Positions 1,545 through 15,371 of a stretch of 15,371 nt of DNA are shown here, one piece after another. A model generated the notes under the pieces. The model had not been told where the DNA came from. It made no database searches and worked only from the letters and a program-made list of their open reading frames with translations. Source of the stretch: a virus (Duplodnaviria; Heunggongvirae; Uroviricota; Caudoviricetes); IMG/VR virus record IMGVR_UViG_2579778778_000003; one strand, written 5' to 3'. Position 1 is the first letter of the stretch. Every line of letters starts with the position of its first letter. The position numbers and the translations under genes were made by a program.

Positions 1545-1928
1545 ATGCGTGATATTCAGATGGTTCTTGAACGTTGGGGAGCGTGGGCGGCTAATAATCA
1601 TGAAGATGTGACCTGGTCGTCCATTGCCGCCGGTTTTAAGGGATTAATTCCTTCAAAAGTAAAATCTCGCCCGCAATGTTGTGACGATGACGCGATGATC
1701 ATTTGCGGGTGCATGGCCCGTCTGAAAAAGAACAACAGCGATTTGCACGATTTATTAGTAGATTATTATGTAGTCGGTATGACATTCATGTCACTGGCAG
1801 GTAAGCATTGCTGCTCTGATGGTTATATCGGGAAAAGGTTACAGAAGGCTGAGGGCATAATTGAAGGGATGTTAATGGCATTAGATATCCGGTTAGAGAT
1901 GGATATCGTTGTTAATAACTCTAATTAA
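1545..1928 (+). CDS. quuD: late-gene antiterminator Q (QuuD / phage-82-type Q family)
   Basis: 127-codon ORF from ATG 1545 with GGAG 7 nt upstream; Cys-rich segment ([12 protein letters not shown]); sits where Q is found in DLP12-type prophages, upstream of nmpC and the lysis cassette. Identity recognised from memory of DLP12 QuuD, not verified by search. Confidence 0.75.
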
Positions 1929-1950: not shown

Positions 1951-1979
1951 TTATTAAAAATGGGGCGTTGCAACGCCCC
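1951..1979 (-). terminator. intrinsic terminator for nmpC / IpeX
   Basis: Perfect palindrome GGGGCGTTG-CAACGCCCC (1962-1979) followed on the minus strand by ATTTTTAATAA. Confidence 0.6.
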
Positions 1980-2117
1980 CAAAAATAAAGGGTAATATAT
2001 AACAGAAGGTTTATATAGTTAGAAGCAAGGTTGTGCTCCTAAAGGAAGTGGCTTGAGGGAGCCACTTATATGTTGGGGAGGCAACGCCTCCCGCAACATA
2101 TCTTTTTCGTAATCAGA
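1951..2117 (-). ncRNA. ipeX: nmpC 3' UTR with three hairpins; candidate IpeX-like sRNA
   Basis: On the minus strand, directly after the nmpC stop: hairpins at 2076-2092 (GGGAGGC/GCCTCCC), 2046-2067 (AAGTGGCT/AGCCACTT) and a perfect 18-bp palindrome at 1962-1979 followed by a U-run. The ~167-nt span matches the reported size and position of IpeX downstream of nmpC in DLP12. Confidence 0.45.
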
Positions 2118-3215
2118 TTAGAACTGGTAAACCAGACCTACAGCAACGATGTCATCAGTGCTTACACCGAGTGCTTTAGTGAAGTCATTTTTGTCAAGCA
2201 GGTTGATTTTGTAATCAACGAAAGTAGACATATTTTTGTTGAAGTAATAGGTTGCACCTACATCAACATATTTGACTAAGTCCTGATCGCCCCATACTCC
2301 AAGATCCTTACCTTTAGATTGCAGGTAAGCAACGGACGGACGCAGACCGAAATCGAACTGATATTGTGCAACAGCTTCGAAGTTTTGAGCTTTATTAGCA
2401 ACGAAGTGATCAGCAAATACAGTCATATTCTGGGTTTCAGAATAGGTAGTGGCCAGGTAAATGTTGTTAGCGTCATATTTCAGACCTGCGGCCCAAACTT
2501 CTGCATTTTTACCGGAAGCAAATACTTCAGGAAGAACTTTCCCTGCATTAACTTGAGTGTCGGTACGATCAGATTTCGCATAAGTTGCACCGATACCGAA
2601 TCCTTCGTATTCATAGGTAGCAGAGAAACCGAAGCCATCACCGTTACCTTCGGTGTAGTTATCGAAATCGCTACGATCGTTTTTGCCTTGGTACTGAGCA
2701 GCAAAGTTCAGACCATCAACCAGACCAAAGAAGTCGTTGTTACGATAGGTTGCAACACCAGTGGTGCGACCAGTCATGAACACATCTGTTTGGGTCCAGG
2801 TATCGCCACCGAATTCTGGCAGAACGTCAGTCCACGCACCGATGTCGTATGCTACACCGTAGTTACGGCCGTAATCGATTGAGCCGTAGTCACCGAATTT
2901 CAGGCCTGCAAATGCAAGACGGGTTTTGTCTTTGGAGGAACCTTGAGATTCAGCGCGGTTGCCTTTGAATTCATATTCCCACTGACCGAAACCAGTCAGC
3001 TGATCGTTGATTTGGGTTTCGCCTTTGAAGCCCAGACGAACATAAGTAGTATCACCATCATCTGCATCGTTAGAGGAAAAGTAGTGCTTGGCATTAACTT
3101 TCCCGTACAGATCCAGCTTGTTACTGTCTTTATTATAAATTTCAGCTGCCTGAGCAGACATCGCCATCAGTACTGATGCAGCTACAGCAGAAATTGCCAC
3201 TGTTAATTTTTTCAT
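2118..3215 (-). CDS. nmpC: outer-membrane general porin NmpC (OmpC/OmpF/PhoE family), full length with signal peptide
   Basis: 365-aa ORF; signal peptide [23 protein letters not shown] then AEIYNKD; C-terminal VYQF; AGGG Shine-Dalgarno upstream of ATG at 3215; matches NmpC as remembered. Confidence 0.93.
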
Positions 3216-3544
3216 CGTGAGCCCTTTTTTTTGAACTATTATTAAAAAATGATGTCACTGCGCGATAAATATTCATCTAATCAATGTGATTATTTCAAGA
3301 TGTAAGTTTTAGTTTCTCATTTAATTTGTGAAGTAGATCTCTATTTTTATCTGAACTTTTTCTATCGAAACCTATTTATGGCTCTTATTTGAACAAAAAT
3401 AAATCTATTAGCTAATTTATATTAATGGCTGTTATTTATGGTGGTTCTATAATTCGTCTGTTTAATTTAAACCGGCTAAAAATAACACTGGAAATTATTT
3501 ATTGGTTATTTGTTGAGGTTTTCTTATGTATTTGTGGTGATGTT

Positions 3545-3573
3545 TTGAACACTCGGTAGCATTCTCATAAATA
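3545..3573 (+). promoter_or_regulatory. candidate sigma70 promoter (TTGAAC, 17-bp spacer, TAAATA), possible pR'-equivalent late promoter for the lysis cassette
   Basis: -35 TTGAAC at 3545-3550, 17-nt spacer, -10 TAAATA at 3568-3573; about 230 bp upstream of the holin start, with a terminator-like structure between. Confidence 0.35.
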
Positions 3574-3692
3574 TCATTCAGTGGTTTACGTACGTAAAAA
3601 ATTGGTTATGCTGTTAAGAGTGGTTACTTCGTCACACAGCTTAAACCCGCCGTCGAGCTGGTTTTTCCATTTTTTGAGTCTCGATATTAGCT

Positions 3693-3750
3693 GATAACTC
3701 AATACCTGAGTTATTCACTGACTCGGAGTCAGTTACGTTTCTGCTTTTTT
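3693..3750 (+). terminator. candidate tR'-like terminator or leader structure ahead of the holin
   Basis: Hairpin GATAACTCA...TGAGTTATT (3693-3715), palindrome CTGACTC-gg-GAGTCAG (3718-3732), then T-run at 3745-3750. The stem-to-T-run spacing of ~12 nt is longer than canonical. Confidence 0.3.
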
Positions 3751-3803
3751 GCGATACGTTGTATTCCCTCAATTTACACCCGCTTTGTCTGCGAGGTGGG
3801 GTT

Positions 3804-6492: not shown

Positions 6493-6656
6493 TCACCATA
6501 ACTGCTAATCATTCAAACTACTTAACCTGTGACAGAGCCAACACGCAGTCTGTCACTGTCAGGAAAGTGGTAAAACTGCAACTCAATTACTGCAATGCCC
6601 TCGTAATTAAGTGAATTTACAATATCGTCCTGTTCGGAGGGAAGAACGCGGGATGT

Positions 6657-6851
6657 TCATTCTTCATCACTTTTAATTGATGTATATGCTCTCTTTTCTG
6701 ACGTTAGCCTCCGACGGCAGGCTTCAATGACCCAGGCTGAGAAATTCCCGGACCCTTTTTGATCAAGAGCGATGTTAATTTGTTCAATCATTTGGTTAGG
6801 AAAGCGGATGTTGCGGGTTGTTGTTCTGCGGGTTCTGTTCTTCGTTGACAT
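6657..6851 (-). CDS. ylcI: YlcI-like small protein (DUF3950), probable ribbon-helix-helix DNA-binding fold
   Basis: 64 aa; basic N-terminus (RTRRTTTRNIRFP) followed by two predicted helices; convergent with ybcW and adjacent to cos. Confidence 0.6.
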   Translation of the reverse strand: MSTKNRTRRTTTRNIRFPNQMIEQINIALDQKGSGNFSAWVIEACRRRLTSEKRAYTSIKSDEE

Positions 6852-7009
6852 GAGGTTGCCCCGTATTCAGTGTCGCTGATTTGTATTGTCTGAAGTTGTT
6901 TTTACGTTAAGTTGATGCGGATCAATTAATACGATACCTGCGTCATAATTGATTATTTGACGTGGTTTGATGGCGTAGATGCACGTTGTGACATGTAGAT
7001 GATAATTAT

Positions 7010-7230
7010 TATCATTTTGCGGGTCCTTTCCGGCGATCCGACAGGTTACGGGGCGGCGACCTCGCGGGTTTTCGCTATTTATGAAAATTTTCCGGTTTAA
7101 GGCGTTTCCGTTCTTCTTCGTCATAACTTAATGTTTTTATTTAAAATACCCTCTGAAAAGAAAGGAAACGACAGGTGCTGAAAACGGGCTTTTTGGCCAC
7201 TGTCGTTTCCTTTCTCTGTTTTTGTCCGTG
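7010..7230 (+). other. cos: lambda cos site: cosQ, cosN (12-nt cohesive end GGGCGGCGACCT at 7051-7062) and cosB with R3, R2 and R1 terminase-binding elements
   Basis: ...CGGCGATCCGACAGGTTACG|GGGCGGCGACCTCGCGGGTTTTCGCTATTTATGAAAA... matches the lambda right-end/left-end junction; R3 CGTTTCCGTTCTTCTTCG at 7103-7120, R2 inverted at 7153-7174, R1 CGTTTCCTTTCTCTG at 7204-7218, just upstream of Nu1. Confidence 0.9.
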
Positions 7231-7239
7231 GAATGAACA

Positions 7240-7759
7240 ATGGAAGTCAACAAAAAGCAGCTGGCTGAAATTTTCGGCGCGAGTATCCGTACCATTCAGA
7301 ACTGGCAGGAGCAGGGAATGCCCGTTCTGCGAGGCGGTGGGAAGGGTAATGAGGTGCTTTATGACTCTGCCGCCGTCATAAAATGGTATGCCGAAAGGGA
7401 TGCTGAAATTGAGAACGAAAAGCTGCGCCGGGAGGTTGAAGAACTGCGACAGGCCAGCGAGACAGATCTCCAGCCAGGGACTATTGAGTACGAACGCCAT
7501 CGACTTACGCGTGCGCAGGCCGACGCACAGGAGCTGAAAAATGCCAGAGACTCCGCTGAAGTGGTGGAAACCGCATTCTGTACTTTCGTGCTGTCGCGGA
7601 TCGCAGGTGAAATTGCCAGTATTCTCGACGGGATCCCCCTGTCGGTGCAGCGGCGTTTTCCGGAACTGGAAAACCGACATGTTGATTTCCTGAAACGGGA
7701 TATCATCAAAGCCATGAACAAAGCAGCCGCGCTGGATGAACTGATACCGGGGTTGCTGA

Positions 7760-7785
<26 letters not shown>
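7240..7785 (+). CDS. nu1: terminase small subunit Nu1
   Basis: 181 aa, near-identical to lambda Nu1 as remembered (MEVNKKQLA...EYIEQSG); wHTH N-terminus; overlaps the A start by 26 nt as in lambda. Confidence 0.95.
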
Positions 7786-10244
<2,459 letters not shown>

Positions 10245-10338: not shown

Positions 10339-10872
10339 CTGGCCGGAACTAATGAATTTATTGGTGAAGGTGATGCATATATTCCGCCTCATACAGGTCT
10401 GCCAGCAAACAGTACCGATATTGCACCACCAGATATTCCTGCTGGCTTTGTGGCTGTTTTCAACAGTGATGAGGCATCGTGGCATCTCGTTGAAGATCAT
10501 CGGGGTAAAACGGTTTATGACGTGGCTTCCGGCGACGCGTTATTTATTTCTGAACTCGGCTCATTACCGGAAAATGTCACCTGGTTATCCCCGGAAGGGG
10601 AGTTTCAGAAGTGGAACGGCACAGCTTGGGTGAAGGATACGGAAGCAGAAAAACTGTTCCGGATCCGTGAGGCGGAAGAAACAAAAAACAGCCTGATGCA
10701 GGTAGCCAGTGAGCATATAGCGCCGCTTCAGGATGCTGTGGATCTGGAGATCGCAACGGAGGAAGAAACCTTGTTGCTGGAAGCCTGGAAAAAGTATCGG
10801 GTGTTGCTGAACCGTGTTGATACATCAACTGCACCTGATATTGAGTGGCCTACGAACCCTGTCAGGGAGTAA
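10339..10872 (+). pseudogene. tfaD: tail fibre assembly protein Tfa, 5'-truncated (first ~14 codons replaced)
   Basis: Translation from ~10339 ([54 protein letters not shown]...EWPTNPVRE) matches lambda Tfa from residue ~15 onward; no in-frame start upstream; only an internal GTG at 10450. Confidence 0.75.
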
Positions 10873-12140: not shown

Positions 12141-13016
12141 TTATTGTATTTCTGCTTCAGAATTTCCTGGGCAGTATATATTTTCTATTTTTTGTGGAGT
12201 GATCAGGTGATGTACAACTGCTTTATCTACACATAAATTAACTCCGGTGAGAGCTAATGTATGCCCATCACCATTTATTGTTAGTAACGGGCTGGAAAAT
12301 TTCTCTGCCATCTTACGGGCATTAATCCAGGGCGTTGTTGGGTCGTATTTGTGTGCTACAAACAGTAAACCAGAGGGCAGAACAGTATTTTTCAGGCGAG
12401 TTTTGTTCAGGTCGCTATGTATTGGCCATAATTCACAAAAATCAGGCAAATCGGAACGTCCATTGTCAAAGTTAATAGCCGGGAAGGCATTCGCAAGAGC
12501 GTCTTTTCGGGATTTTCGCTCTTCTGGTGTTAATTGCTCATCCCCCTGATCTACACAGAGGATTACCCCCGAAGCATCGCTTGACTCTTCTGAGGCTATC
12601 GGAGCACTGAGCGCAGTTTCAATTTCATTACTGACAATCCCCTGAGAGAACTGGCGTATGGCAGTTGCAAGGGTTGGCCATGATGAACGCCATAGCAGAA
12701 GGTCTGTTGTTAATGATATGAGTTCATCTGAAGATATATTTTCTCTCTTACTGTCTAATAAAGGTTTGTGATGTAATTTTGATAATAGCTCATGGAACTG
12801 AGTTATTGCCTTATCTCTGTCTGAAGAAAGCGGGCAACTTTTTGTACGCGCACACCAGGATGCAAAGCGATCAAACGTTTCCTGATAACTCTGTGCCTGT
12901 TTGAGTTGCCATGTGAAGTTGTCCTCCAGGTCATCAGAAACTCCGCTCAAAGGATCTATGCTTCCTGCATGAGTGATCGGCCCGTTCGCCGATAGCCGCT
13001 GGCGTGGTACGTCAGT
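12141..13016 (-). pseudogene. C-terminal portion of an alpha/beta-hydrolase of the TAP-like (S33 peptidase) family; 5' part missing
   Basis: C-terminus has the TAP-like signature (CELWP...LLFVAHKYDPTTPWINARKMAEKF...LLTINGDGHTLALTGVNLCVDKAVVHHL) with the Asp and His catalytic region, but no GxSxG nucleophile. The frame is open upstream to 13016 without an ATG; the track ORF begins at a TTG. Confidence 0.5.
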
Positions 13017-13309
13017 TTAAGCCGGATCCCGTCGGTGTGACTGACACCCGTGATCCGGTACTGGCTGTCGCGCTCAAACGTGATGCGGTTGCTGGCGGTG
13101 TCGCTCATCCCGCCCAGCATGTACATCCGGTCATTGGGGCTGTGTGCCAGGCGGTCATCGCTGGTATCGTCAGTCACCGGGTGGCGCAGACGCATTCCCG
13201 GAAAGGCGTCATAAAAGAAGCGGCTGCTCAGTGCATCCCTGTCGAACAGCTCCAGATAATCATCGCGGCGGCGCAGAATGTACTGGGCGTGATACGGGTT
13301 AGCTGGCAT
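12956..13309 (-). pseudogene. possible Rhs / YD-repeat fragment
   Basis: 117-aa ORF with two YD-repeat-like segments (FFYDAFPGMRLRHPVTDD; YRITGVSHTDGIRLKLTYH); a stop lies 2 codons upstream of its ATG; overlaps both neighbouring frames. Assignment is by motif pattern only. Confidence 0.3.
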
Positions 13310-13625
13310 ACATCAGCGCAGGCACCAGAACCAGCGCATAAGGGCCGGTGGCACAGGCGGCCATAATCAGGCAACCTTCTGCGATGGTCACTATCGCCCC
13401 CAGCACGGCCCCTGCCAGCGCCCCCAAAAAACTCTTGTGCTGAATTTCATCGCCCAGCCTGGCGGCGGGGGGGCCGGACTTTTTTGATGCCAACATCTGT
13501 GCAATGGCTTTGTCGTTGGCTGCCCGTTTCATCTGGCTGGCGACCATCGCCTGCTGTGACAGCATTCGCATTGCCAGCGTACCGCCTGCGGTCGCTCCCT
13601 GTGGCCCGCCTGGTCCTTCACTCAT
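13299..13625 (-). CDS. N-terminal prePAAR-TMD fragment of a T6SS effector (class I, Eag-dependent type); PAAR and body missing
   Basis: prePAAR motif AARLGDEIQH (13437-13466) directly followed by a Gly/Ala-rich transmembrane stretch (FLGALAGAVLGAIVTIAEGCLIMAACATGPYALVLVPALM), then a stop; no PAAR repeats follow. The true start may be the internal ATG at 13496. Confidence 0.55.
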   Translation of the reverse strand: MSEGPGGPQGATAGGTLAMRMLSQQAMVASQMKRAANDKAIAQMLASKKSGPPAARLGDEIQHKSFLGALAGAVLGAIVTIAEGCLIMAACATGPYALVLVPALMYAS

Positions 13626-13644
13626 GTGTTATCCCTCGTTTATG

Positions 13645-14106
13645 TCAGCGCGGCTGGTCCTTTTGGATGTCATTCTCCGGTGGCAACGGGGTGAAGCTCT
13701 TTATCACCTCCAGCAGCATCGTCTTTTGACTGTTCTTCAGGGATAAGGAGGTGCTGAAAGTGAAGGTCAGCAGCGTATCTCCACGCCGCTGGAATACGGC
13801 TATCTGGCTAATCCGCCCCTGATTCCCCTCATCTTCCGGACCGTTCCAGGAATAATCCAGCAGCCAGGCCGGGGCCTCTGCCAGAGTGATTTCCCGGCAG
13901 GCATGTTCGGTGTACCCATCAAGTTTGCCCTGGTACAGCGCCAGCGTTTCCTGGTACAGCTCTGGTGTCAGGGTTCCCTGTGGAACGGCTTCGCGGGTAA
14001 TGACCAGGTTGATGCCACTGTTATCTGTGGACACCAGGACCTGCATTGACTGATCCTGCCATTGAGACGGCAGTTGAATGTGGCCTTCATTAAAAGTGAA
14101 CTGCAT
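13645..14106 (-). CDS. Eag-family effector chaperone (DUF1795)
   Basis: 153 aa; N-terminus MQFTFNEGHIQLPSQWQDQS typical of DUF1795/Eag adaptors; lies between vgrG and the prePAAR effector, the canonical arrangement. Confidence 0.75.
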   Translation of the reverse strand: MQFTFNEGHIQLPSQWQDQSMQVLVSTDNSGINLVITREAVPQGTLTPELYQETLALYQGKLDGYTEHACREITLAEAPAWLLDYSWNGPEDEGNQGRISQIAVFQRRGDTLLTFTFSTSLSLKNSQKTMLLEVIKSFTPLPPENDIQKDQPR

Positions 14107-14133
14107 AAAATACTCCCTGATAATCTGAGTGAA

Positions 14134-15371
14134 TTAGTTGATGAAAACAGAACCGCCCACGATGGTGATGCCATCCTTCGACAGCCTGATTACCGTCGAT
14201 TCCCCGACCTGTAGCTGAATGCCATCCGGCGTCAGCGCAATTTTGCTTTCCTCCACGGCCAGCAAAATTTCCTTAATCGCCGTATAAGCCTGTATACCGT
14301 CGCCTTCGCCACCATTGTTTACAGCGTCAACATGCACCGAACCGGCAATCGTGCCTCTGTCCTGAAAGACATCCTCAGATAAAGACCCTTTCAGTACTCC
14401 GGTGATCTTGTGGCCTTTTTCCACCGTAAGAAGGCGGTTACCTTCCTGGATCGTGACCGTCTGGTCATTTTTTACGGTTTCGCGATGATCGTGTTTTACG
14501 GTGGTGGTACGGTCGTTGAGCACTTCGGTATCCATGTTCTTCTGCGCGTGGATGTAGACCTGTTCTCTCCCTGTCGCATCATCAAACTTCAGCTCATTAA
14601 ATCCGCTGCCCATGTACGTTTTGGAGCGGATGGTCATCTGCGTCTTTGTTCCCGGCAGGCTGCCGGGGGTGCGGTTTTCCTGGTGGTAGGTGCGCCCCAT
14701 AATGATCGGCTGGTCCGGATCGCCGTTGAGGAAGTCTACAATCACCTCCTGACCCACACGCGGTATCGCCAGGTGGCCAAAACCGGTGCCTGCCCACGCC
14801 TGTGCCACACGGATCCAGCACGAACTGTCTTGGTCTGCCGGGTTATAACGGTCCCAGTTGAACTTCACCCGCACGCGACCATGTTCGTCGCAGAAGATTT
14901 CCTCGCCTGCCGGTCCTGTCACGACAGCGCTCTGCGGGCCGTCGACCAGCGGTTTCAGCAACGGCTGTGGTCGCCATGTTCTGTCTGCCGGGATCACCGC
15001 AAAATGGTTCTCCAGCGCCGTCCCCGCTCCCTGCCGTCCTGGCACCGCCTGTGGCTGTTCGCCGTGCAGTTCACTTGCCACCACCTGCCATTCCCGGTTC
15101 AGGTTCGCCTGCGGATGCCCCGTCAGCACAATTCGCCGTCCCGGCCATATCTCCGGCGAGCGGCTCATTCCCCGCGCGGTTTCTGCGTTGTTTCGCCAGC
15201 CGTCCATCTGCCAGCGGGCAAAGTTCTGCCCGTGGGCGCTCTTGAAACGTCCGGGGTAGTCATACACTTCATACTGCGTGCGCTGGTAGTCCTGGTGCTG
15301 GCCTTCCTGTTCAAAACGTCCGGCCCAGCCGGGGCGTTTAAAGGTGTAGTCTTTGGTCACCACGGAAGAAG
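14134..15371 (-). CDS. vgrG: VgrG spike protein, C-terminal ~410 residues (gene continues beyond the window edge)
   Basis: Frame open to the window end; gp27/gp5-like region (NWDRYNPADQDSSCWIRVAQAWAGTGFGHLAIPRVGQEVIVDFLNGDPDQPIIMGRTYHQENRTPGSLP) and C-terminal beta-helix/DUF2345-like region ending GSVFIN. Confidence 0.9.
   Translation of the reverse strand, partial: SSVVTKDYTFKRPGWAGRFEQEGQHQDYQRTQYEVYDYPGRFKSAHGQNFARWQMDGWRNNAETARGMSRSPEIWPGRRIVLTGHPQANLNREWQVVASELHGEQPQAVPGRQGAGTALENHFAVIPADRTWRPQPLLKPLVDGPQSAVVTGPAGEEIFCDEHGRVRVKFNWDRYNPADQDSSCWIRVAQAWAGTGFGHLAIPRVGQEVIVDFLNGDPDQPIIMGRTYHQENRTPGSLPGTKTQMTIRSKTYMGSGFNELKFDDATGREQVYIHAQKNMDTEVLNDRTTTVKHDHRETVKNDQTVTIQEGNRLLTVEKGHKITGVLKGSLSEDVFQDRGTIAGSVHVDAVNNGGEGDGIQAYTAIKEILLAVEESKIALTPDGIQLQVGESTVIRLSKDGITIVGGSVFIN

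Follow-up and report, generated by a model that had tools for sequence, protein, structure and literature searches.

How does an RNA that lies in a phage porin gene's 3' untranslated region (3' UTR) lower the porins of its host? This question is raised by a 15,371-nucleotide (nt) stretch of viral DNA, IMG/VR record IMGVR_UViG_2579778778_000003 (the whole stretch is called the window below), in which positions 1951–2117 of the minus strand directly follow a porin gene. The initial annotation had proposed that this interval corresponds to IpeX, a small RNA (sRNA) of the Escherichia coli prophage DLP12. As stated, that finding placed an already described sRNA in a strain whose porin gene is intact and went no further. 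For about 20 years, citations of IpeX have presented it as a regulator of porins that acts in the absence of base pairing. What the sequence offers is a simple antisense mechanism at the validated target sites of the sRNAs MicC and MicF, backed by a diverged second lineage. The reading put forward here, to which we give about an even chance in its full form, is that IpeX is a phage-borne 3'-UTR antisense RNA whose seed, partly MicC-like and partly MicF-like, silences both OmpC and OmpF, and that it belongs to a wider, undescribed family that follows porin genes in phages of at least two unrelated types (lambdoid and P1/P7), with seeds that have drifted yet remain complementary to their targets.

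That the element is IpeX, the structured 3' UTR of an lc/nmpC-type porin gene in a DLP12-like prophage, is practically certain. Its alignment to K-12 ipeX, the interval between the DLP12 nmpC stop codon and quuD, showed 164 of 167 positions to be identical, and this positive result supports the identification given in the initial annotation. The three differences are one G/A exchange in hairpin 3 and two bases in the terminator loop; the 3' region of the lc gene of phage PA-2 is the same as the K-12 sequence across the whole element. With both of these the element shares its sequence, length, position, terminator, and the convergent quuD gene. The size and position proposed earlier agree with the published RNA as well: the element comprises 167 nt directly 3' of the nmpC stop codon, and a 2025 review gives the same size for ipeX, describing it as a DLP12 RNA that is made from the phage porin promoter within the porin transcript and needs processing. 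The covariance model R1 scored the element at 215.5 bits and found no second match in the window. Rfam scans by gathering score and by E-value returned no family over the element, the best sub-threshold hits being terminator look-alikes with E ≥ 0.4, and IpeX appears to be without an Rfam model of its own. It should be noted that the RefSeq record of MG1655 (NC_000913.3, 574362–574528) carries no ipeX feature, though micF and micC are annotated there as non-coding RNAs (ncRNA). A 2025 paper still counts ipeX among the EcoCyc sRNAs.

According to the literature, IpeX was discovered as a multicopy suppressor, lowers both OmpC and OmpF, and acts on ompC independently of Hfq; an ipeX signal has been reported in K-12 and in clinical isolates. 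The IpeX element and its 3'-UTR origin are already published, and the initial finding, which identified this sRNA correctly next to an intact porin gene, as is common for it, was not new.

Complementarity of IpeX to the ompC and ompF start regions

The complementarity of IpeX was assessed against the K-12 ompC and ompF leaders. The background was taken from genomic windows only, namely 150-nt windows of E. coli prophage DNA with ipeX masked. Full-length RNAduplex calculations of IpeX against 150-nt targets gave meaningless "duplexes" of 140 nt (z about −1.3 to −1.5); because of this, windowed, accessibility-corrected scores were used together with run-length and alignment nulls.

The block that matters here is conserved and mostly unpaired, and lies between hairpin 3 and the terminator (nt 99–135 of IpeX; 1983–2019, minus strand). 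It is called the seed below. Within it, nt 107–121 (5'-AACCUUCUGUUAUAU, window positions 2011–1997) can form 15 contiguous pairs, one of them G·U, with ompC −7 to −21, a partner that includes the Shine–Dalgarno motif GAGGG. A 15-base-pair (bp) run was reached in just 1 of 12,000 random background windows. The extended duplex comprises 27 bp over ompC −31 to −3 with a hybridisation energy of −26.7 kcal/mol: nt 103–105 pair with −3 to −5, nt 107–121 with −7 to −21, and nt 127–135 with −23 to −31 (2013–2015, 1997–2011, and 1983–1991 in the window). Local alignment of IpeX to the reverse complement of the ompC leader scored 32, a value reached in 16 of 40,000 background windows (approximately 4e-4), and the opposite strand of IpeX, used as a control, scored 14. 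With the accessibility costs included, the ompC site had an energy of −13.5 to −14.3 kcal/mol, compared with −4.4 ± 2.5 kcal/mol for the null, the best value of which was −10.9. The longest perfect Watson–Crick run with ompC is only 10 nt, and the match could have been overlooked because a default word-11 search misses a run of this length.

Meanwhile, nt 115–130 (1988–2003) match the ompF Shine–Dalgarno sequence and spacer (−14 to −1) with a score of 23, which was found in 0.7% of the null windows. The accessibility-corrected energy for ompF was −9.4 kcal/mol, at the Shine–Dalgarno sequence. The leader of the phage porin itself, taken as a control, gave just −4.3 kcal/mol, and for ompA the sole predicted site lay far upstream (−85 to −65) and involved the terminator stem of IpeX.

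These sites were compared with those of MicC and MicF, which were taken from published reports. The predicted ompC site and the MicC duplex overlap: nt 1–16 of MicC pair with ompC −30 to −15, and IpeX is predicted on −31 to −23 plus −21 to −3. With the ompF-binding stretch of MicF, IpeX shares 11 of 12 nt; here, IpeX UUAUAUAUUACC matches MicF UUAUUUAUUACC, which pairs with the ompF Shine–Dalgarno region. All three RNAs, IpeX by prediction, would block ribosome binding. In spite of this likeness, there is no overall sequence homology between IpeX and MicC or MicF, the best local matches being 11–12 nt long. MicC and MicF are free-standing, Hfq-dependent chromosomal genes with their own promoters and 5'-end seeds, whereas IpeX forms a 3' UTR, carries its seed internally, shortly before the terminator, and is predicted to target both porins with one RNA. 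IpeX would resemble the 3'-UTR-derived sRNAs CpxQ (from cpxP) and SroC (from gltIJKL) in using the terminator of the parent mRNA, and it is like such processed RNAs in having a conserved seed upstream of the terminator and a U-rich 3' module that looks like the Hfq type. Unlike CpxQ and SroC, it has a phage-borne parent gene, and its targets compete functionally with the product of that gene. RaiZ and NarS are further 3'-UTR-derived sRNAs processed from mRNAs.

Fold, conservation, and a second lineage in P1/P7-type phages

The folding ascribed to the 167 nt after the nmpC stop codon on the minus strand was borne out: the RNA folds to −62.4 kcal/mol, compared with −33.6 ± 3.6 kcal/mol for 200 dinucleotide shuffles, none of which folded as well (z = −8.0). 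The number of stem-loops had to be corrected, as three had been counted, whereas the fold and an inverted-repeat scan give four strong hairpins and one weak one, all on the minus strand. Hairpin 1 (nt 17–50; 2068–2101) has 15 bp and one bulged base, ATATGTTG-C-GGGAGGC / GCCTCCC-CAACATAT; in natural variants, the bulge or the loop is altered, or the bulge is deleted. Hairpin 2 (nt 51–72; 2046–2067) has 8 bp, AAGTGGCT / AGCCACTT, and the loop CCCUCA. Hairpin 3 (nt 76–99; 2019–2042) has 7–9 bp with the core AG(G/A)AGCA / TGCTTCT, the G/A polymorphism exchanging a G·U for an A-U pair. The weak hairpin (1996–2017) consists of A/U pairs only, and we read this modelled structure as part of a functionally unpaired seed region. 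The predicted unpaired probability within the 167-nt RNA is 0.89 for nt 108–115 and 0.72 for nt 122–135.

The RNA ends in a Rho-independent terminator (1956–1979, minus strand), in which the palindrome GGGGCGTTGCAACGCCCC (1962–1979) is followed by AUUUUU (1956–1961); the palindrome and its T run received an intrinsic-terminator call on the minus strand (1979..1962). The initial annotation was right about a perfect palindrome with a U-run; the palindrome comprises 18 nt and is read as a 7-bp stem with a 4-nt loop. Among the lambdoid copies, only the loop bases of the terminator vary. Together with the U-rich stretch just upstream, the terminator resembles an Hfq-binding 3' module and may act as one. 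As a separate observation, the loop of hairpin 2 (2054–2059) exactly complements UGAGGG, the ompF Shine–Dalgarno motif (GAGGG in ompC), and could make a second, kissing-loop contact with the targets. No sigma-70-like site was found on the minus strand within or just upstream of the element by a consensus scan that also misses the porin promoter, and the ipeX signal seen in K-12 despite IS5 may leave room for another promoter.

Variation among the lambdoid copies avoids both the stems and the seed. In 19 distinct variants, 32 columns are variable: 4 of 68 in strong stems, 0 of 25 in the seed, and 28 of 75 elsewhere (Fisher tests, p = 5e-6 and 7e-5). Because part of this variant set was gathered with a pattern lying inside the seed, two independent samples were checked. 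Of 2504 E. coli records, 2290 have the 34-mer around the seed unchanged, and the three one-mismatch variants sampled all carry T104C, which lies outside the 15-bp ompC core helix and breaks the weak A/U hairpin. The seed block is also kept in 78 of the 79 loci that were collected via the porin protein. On the side of the target, 5359 of 5371 genomes have an ompC leader of 99% identity or more. The lambdoid copies alone show no covariation because they are too similar to each other.

A more distant comparison was provided by P1/P7-type phage-plasmids. Phages of this type (P7, with accession AF503408, as well as JL22) and 116 PLSDB plasmids carry nmpC, the protein being approximately 80% identical. 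The 3' UTR of the P7-type nmpC is a diverged IpeX homologue with hairpins 1–3, an unpaired core UGUUAUUUAUUACC, and a terminator in this order, and a covariance model built from the lambdoid variants detects the P7-type 3' UTRs at E = 1e-14 to 1e-17. The two types have the same hairpin order, an identical CCCUCA loop, the unpaired UGUUAUNUAUUACC core, and the terminator in common; the P7 type is far more diverged than the lambdoid copies are among themselves, has an extra ~20 nt before the terminator, and is followed downstream by ssb, not by quuD.

In the joint alignment of the lambdoid and P7 types, 10 of the 39 pairs have changed on both sides and are still paired, although these compensatory pairs represent essentially one deep split and the alignment was fitted to the model. 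Of the alignment cells, 98.2% can pair, compared with 39–52% when the partners are slid, and the observed covariation score was reached in none of 500 shuffles. The compensated pairs of the P7 type comprise two outer pairs of hairpin 1, two pairs of hairpin 2, the loop of which is unchanged, and three pairs of hairpin 3; three more pairs are compensated in the terminator of one Escherichia fergusonii plasmid copy.

Between the lambdoid and P7 types, no stretch is conserved better than the seed block. The P7-type core can form approximately 22 bp with ompF −14 to +9, and approximately 17 bp with ompC −6 to +12 plus the Shine–Dalgarno sequence. Its scores are 28–35, and scores of at least 28 were found in 0.3–0.5% of the null windows. 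Compared with the lambdoid type, the complementarity uses partly different bases, the seed lies closer to the start codons, and the fit to ompF (22 bp) is better. A seed that drifts while the same two targets stay complementary to it is as expected of a base-pairing regulator. Neither a description of the P7-type 3' UTR as an sRNA nor a report of IpeX pairing was found in the accessible literature.

Prophage setting and distribution of the porin–IpeX module

The parent mRNA of the element is that of an intact lc/nmpC-type prophage porin gene (2118–3215, minus strand), the open reading frame (ORF) of which runs from 3215 to a TAA stop codon at 2118–2120 and has 365 codons. The first base of the element directly follows this TAA on the same strand. 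The porin is identical to Lc of phage PA-2 in 362 of 365 residues (99%), its residues 24–365 cover the full length of the solved chains of the OmpC/OmpF/PhoE family, and it matches the NCBIfam OmpC subfamily with 527.8 bits. The claim that nmpC is intact here and split by IS5 in K-12 therefore stands; in K-12, IS5B interrupts the gene 58 nt ahead of its stop codon. The window thus has its porin intact as in PA-2, unlike K-12. Both in K-12 (extract 6592–7786) and in the 434B hybrid phage (extract 3726–4920), IS5 is inserted after porin codon 346, and in E. coli GF54 (NZ_CP172159, extract 688–1385) an IS1 lies within IpeX, just 5' of the seed, so that the module has been a repeated target of insertion sequences. 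A 69-codon ORF (2070–2279, plus strand), antisense to the 3' end of the porin gene and starting inside hairpin 1, corresponds to "ORF1" of the 1980s PA-2 record J02580.

On the other side of the element lies quuD (1545–1928, plus strand), a Q-type antiterminator gene that is convergent with the porin gene and was named from the annotation of the identical RM10466 region. Its protein is a distant match to Q21 structures (E = 7.6e-8), and its stop codon is 22 nt from the end of the element in the window. A convergent quuD 25–26 nt downstream was present in 98 of 99 copies; quuD is a fixed neighbour of the porin–IpeX module and lies outside the RNA.

The prophage of the window is DLP12-like and defective, with quuD, the porin gene, lysis genes, bor, nohD, terminase, and tail-fibre assembly remnants. 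Positions 1–1438 (junction near 1434–1438) match the yfdP/yfdQ side of the RM10466 prophage, a region that RM10466 has ~5.9 kb farther from quuD; the window lacks the immunity, replication, and nin-type genes that intervene there. The prophage reads as a deletion derivative that has retained the quuD–porin–IpeX–lysis module. Between the porin start and the holin gene, a possible late-promoter or leader region was seen by eye (~3540–3760, plus strand), with a possible late promoter TTGAAC-17 nt-TAAATA near 3546–3574 as well as a hairpin, ACTGACTC/GAGTCAGT, with a T-rich run behind it near 3717–3751. A consensus scan flagged neither the promoter-like motif nor the hairpin. If this late promoter is real, the porin–IpeX module sits between Q and the target promoter of Q.

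The element is widespread in E. coli. It was found with 90–100% identity in 2510 of 5426 complete genomes (~46%), at a median of one and a maximum of three places per genome and always at prophage porin loci, as well as in 36 phage records and more than 100 viral contigs. All 99 full-length copies begin directly after the porin TAA. An open frame of at least 369 codons precedes 83 of 87 assessable copies, and a truncation of the K-12 type was seen in only 4, so that an intact porin is the usual state of IpeX loci and nothing special to the window. The element accompanies at least two porin alleles that are 12–15% apart in DNA. A locus search with the porin protein returned porins of 99–100% identity only and no distant relatives.

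When one genome per species was searched with a 20-mer from the element, it was found in E. coli alone, besides one contig and three matches of 20–24 nt outside E. coli, which were dismissed as chance. The contig, NZ_VJYK02000722.1 (442 nt), is assigned to "Streptomyces alkaliterrae"; its positions 253–442 are 98.9% identical to the nmpC end plus the first ~120 nt of IpeX, and the match has the same starting point as that of the K-12-type copies, which are split by IS5. Assembly contamination is very likely here, and Streptomyces was rejected as another host. Matches of a 16-mer from hairpin 1 outside ipeX, in viral contigs, lie in unrelated contexts and were likewise put down to chance. The porin of Salmonella phage SPF_0923 (ON032529, 1–2343) was rejected as a phage module, as it is ompN flanked by ydbK and uspF. 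This arrangement equals the chromosomal order of E. coli K-12, which suggests host DNA in the assembly or in a transducing particle.

Two further regions of the window lie apart from the module. The only Rfam match in the window is IS009 (10631–10829, plus strand; 221.6 bits, full length), and since it falls inside an ORF of the tail-fibre assembly family Caudo_TAP (10450–10872), this "RNA family" may be a conserved piece of prophage coding sequence. Beyond the prophage remnant (12141–15363, minus strand), there are type VI secretion-type genes, all on the minus strand: a VgrG-like spike (14134–15363), a DcrB-family protein (13645–14106), a prePAAR-motif protein (13299–13625), and an alpha/beta hydrolase (12141–12950).

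Proposed mechanism and its alternatives

We propose that transcription from the porin promoter would pass the stop codon and three stable hairpins and end at the palindromic terminator; the sequence and fold behind this step were computed here, and transcription from the porin promoter comes from the literature. The 3' part would accumulate as an RNA of ~167 nt, be it inside the full-length mRNA or following cleavage, as the literature has it. The A/U-rich, largely unpaired, and invariant block between hairpin 3 and the terminator would then serve as the antisense seed. In the lambdoid type, it would form 27 bp with ompC −31 to −3, over the Shine–Dalgarno sequence and overlapping the MicC site, and ~15 bp with the ompF Shine–Dalgarno sequence and spacer, which is the MicF site. 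Such pairing would block 30S binding and lower OmpC and OmpF during the production of the phage porin, and the leader of the phage porin, not being complementary, would be spared. A chaperone would be dispensable for the long ompC duplex, and the shorter ompF duplex would depend on Hfq; the Hfq pattern given in the 2006 abstract reportedly fits this expectation. Protection and shaping of the RNA are the most likely roles of the three 5' hairpins. The biological point of the system would be the replacement of host porins by the phage porin. Since the receptor of PA-2 is presumably OmpC, on which our literature searches found nothing, superinfection would also be excluded.

That IpeX acts by base pairing at translation start regions seems to us probable, and the sequence evidence for pairing argues against the published view of the K-12 RNA, in which there is none. 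Several points weigh against our reading. The whole case for the mechanism has been computed from sequence. A/U-rich sequence inflates chance matches, and the control for this consisted of genomic windows only. The ompF match is weak when taken alone, as 12.5% of random windows reach a 10-bp run. In the fold of a 567-nt precursor, most of the loop part of the seed is paired (unpaired probability 0.18). The seed-based gathering of some variants and the single deep split behind the compensatory pairs, both mentioned above, belong here too. A higher conservation of the 3' UTR relative to the DNA around it was rejected: as a whole (91–95% identity), the 3' UTR is conserved no better than the flanking phage DNA, and greater divergence is seen in the porin coding region alone. 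The original study of IpeX in K-12 DLP12 and PA-2, that of Castillo-Keller, Vuong and Misra (2006, J Bacteriol 188:576), may contain deletion or fusion data at odds with the seed. Finally, base pairing of IpeX with ompC or ompF mRNA is denied in a 2013 review, and according to a 2025 review the mechanism of IpeX does not rest solely on complementarity.

These two review statements, together with the Hfq-independence for ompC in the literature, are what would be expected if IpeX lowers the two porins with no pairing to ompC or ompF mRNA, by titrating a protein on which the translation or stability of porin mRNA depends, or indirectly by envelope signalling, and the three very stable hairpins could be protein-binding decoys. 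The complementarity would then be incidental. We regard this as rather unlikely, because complementarity at the ribosome-binding sites of precisely those two mRNAs that are the known targets would seldom arise by chance (4e-4 and 7e-3), lands on the validated MicC and MicF sites, and recurs in a diverged lineage via partly different bases; moreover, no other unpaired part of the RNA varies as little as the seed, and a longest perfect run of 10 nt could explain why the match was overlooked earlier. Somewhat less probable still is that the hairpins are simply the 3' end of the porin gene, serving termination, exonuclease blocking, or insulation from the Q gene, and that repression in trans is a multicopy artefact. 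The element always lies between the convergent porin and quuD genes, its terminator is strong, its stems are selectively conserved and covary, and IpeX was found as a multicopy suppressor, all of which would fit; the invariant unpaired block and the complementarity to ompC and ompF in two lineages would be left unexplained, and both roles can coexist. Expression of the lc transcript in PA-2 lysogens is said, in the 2006 abstract, to lower OmpC at natural copy number.

The remaining alternatives fare worse. In many lambdoid phages, Q is directly followed by the late promoter; QuuD belongs to the Q21 family, and the hairpins fold on both strands, so that the plus strand might be the functional one, as a Q-dependent late promoter with its leader or as a quuD terminator, with the minus-strand hairpins as a mirror image. 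This is very improbable: there is no promoter-like site in 1929–2117 on the plus strand, the palindrome is followed there by CAAAAAT and no T run, the element begins exactly at the porin stop codon in 99 of 99 copies, it is also found after the P7-type nmpC, where ssb replaces the Q gene downstream, and the antisense strand lacks complementarity to ompC and ompF (score 14). A REP-finding tool flags ipeX as REP-containing, which might suggest that the hairpins are dispersed REP-like palindromes without a locus-specific function; with a median of one and a maximum of three places per genome, always at prophage porin loci, and with the hairpin 1 16-mer elsewhere sitting only in unrelated contexts, we give this next to no credence.

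If the antisense reading of IpeX is confirmed, the sRNA network of the outer membrane would lose an anomaly, and it would become clear how the prophages of nearly half of the E. coli strains swap the porins of their host for their own. Possible consequences may include altered phage receptor availability and antibiotic permeability, as well as effects on OmpC-based typing.

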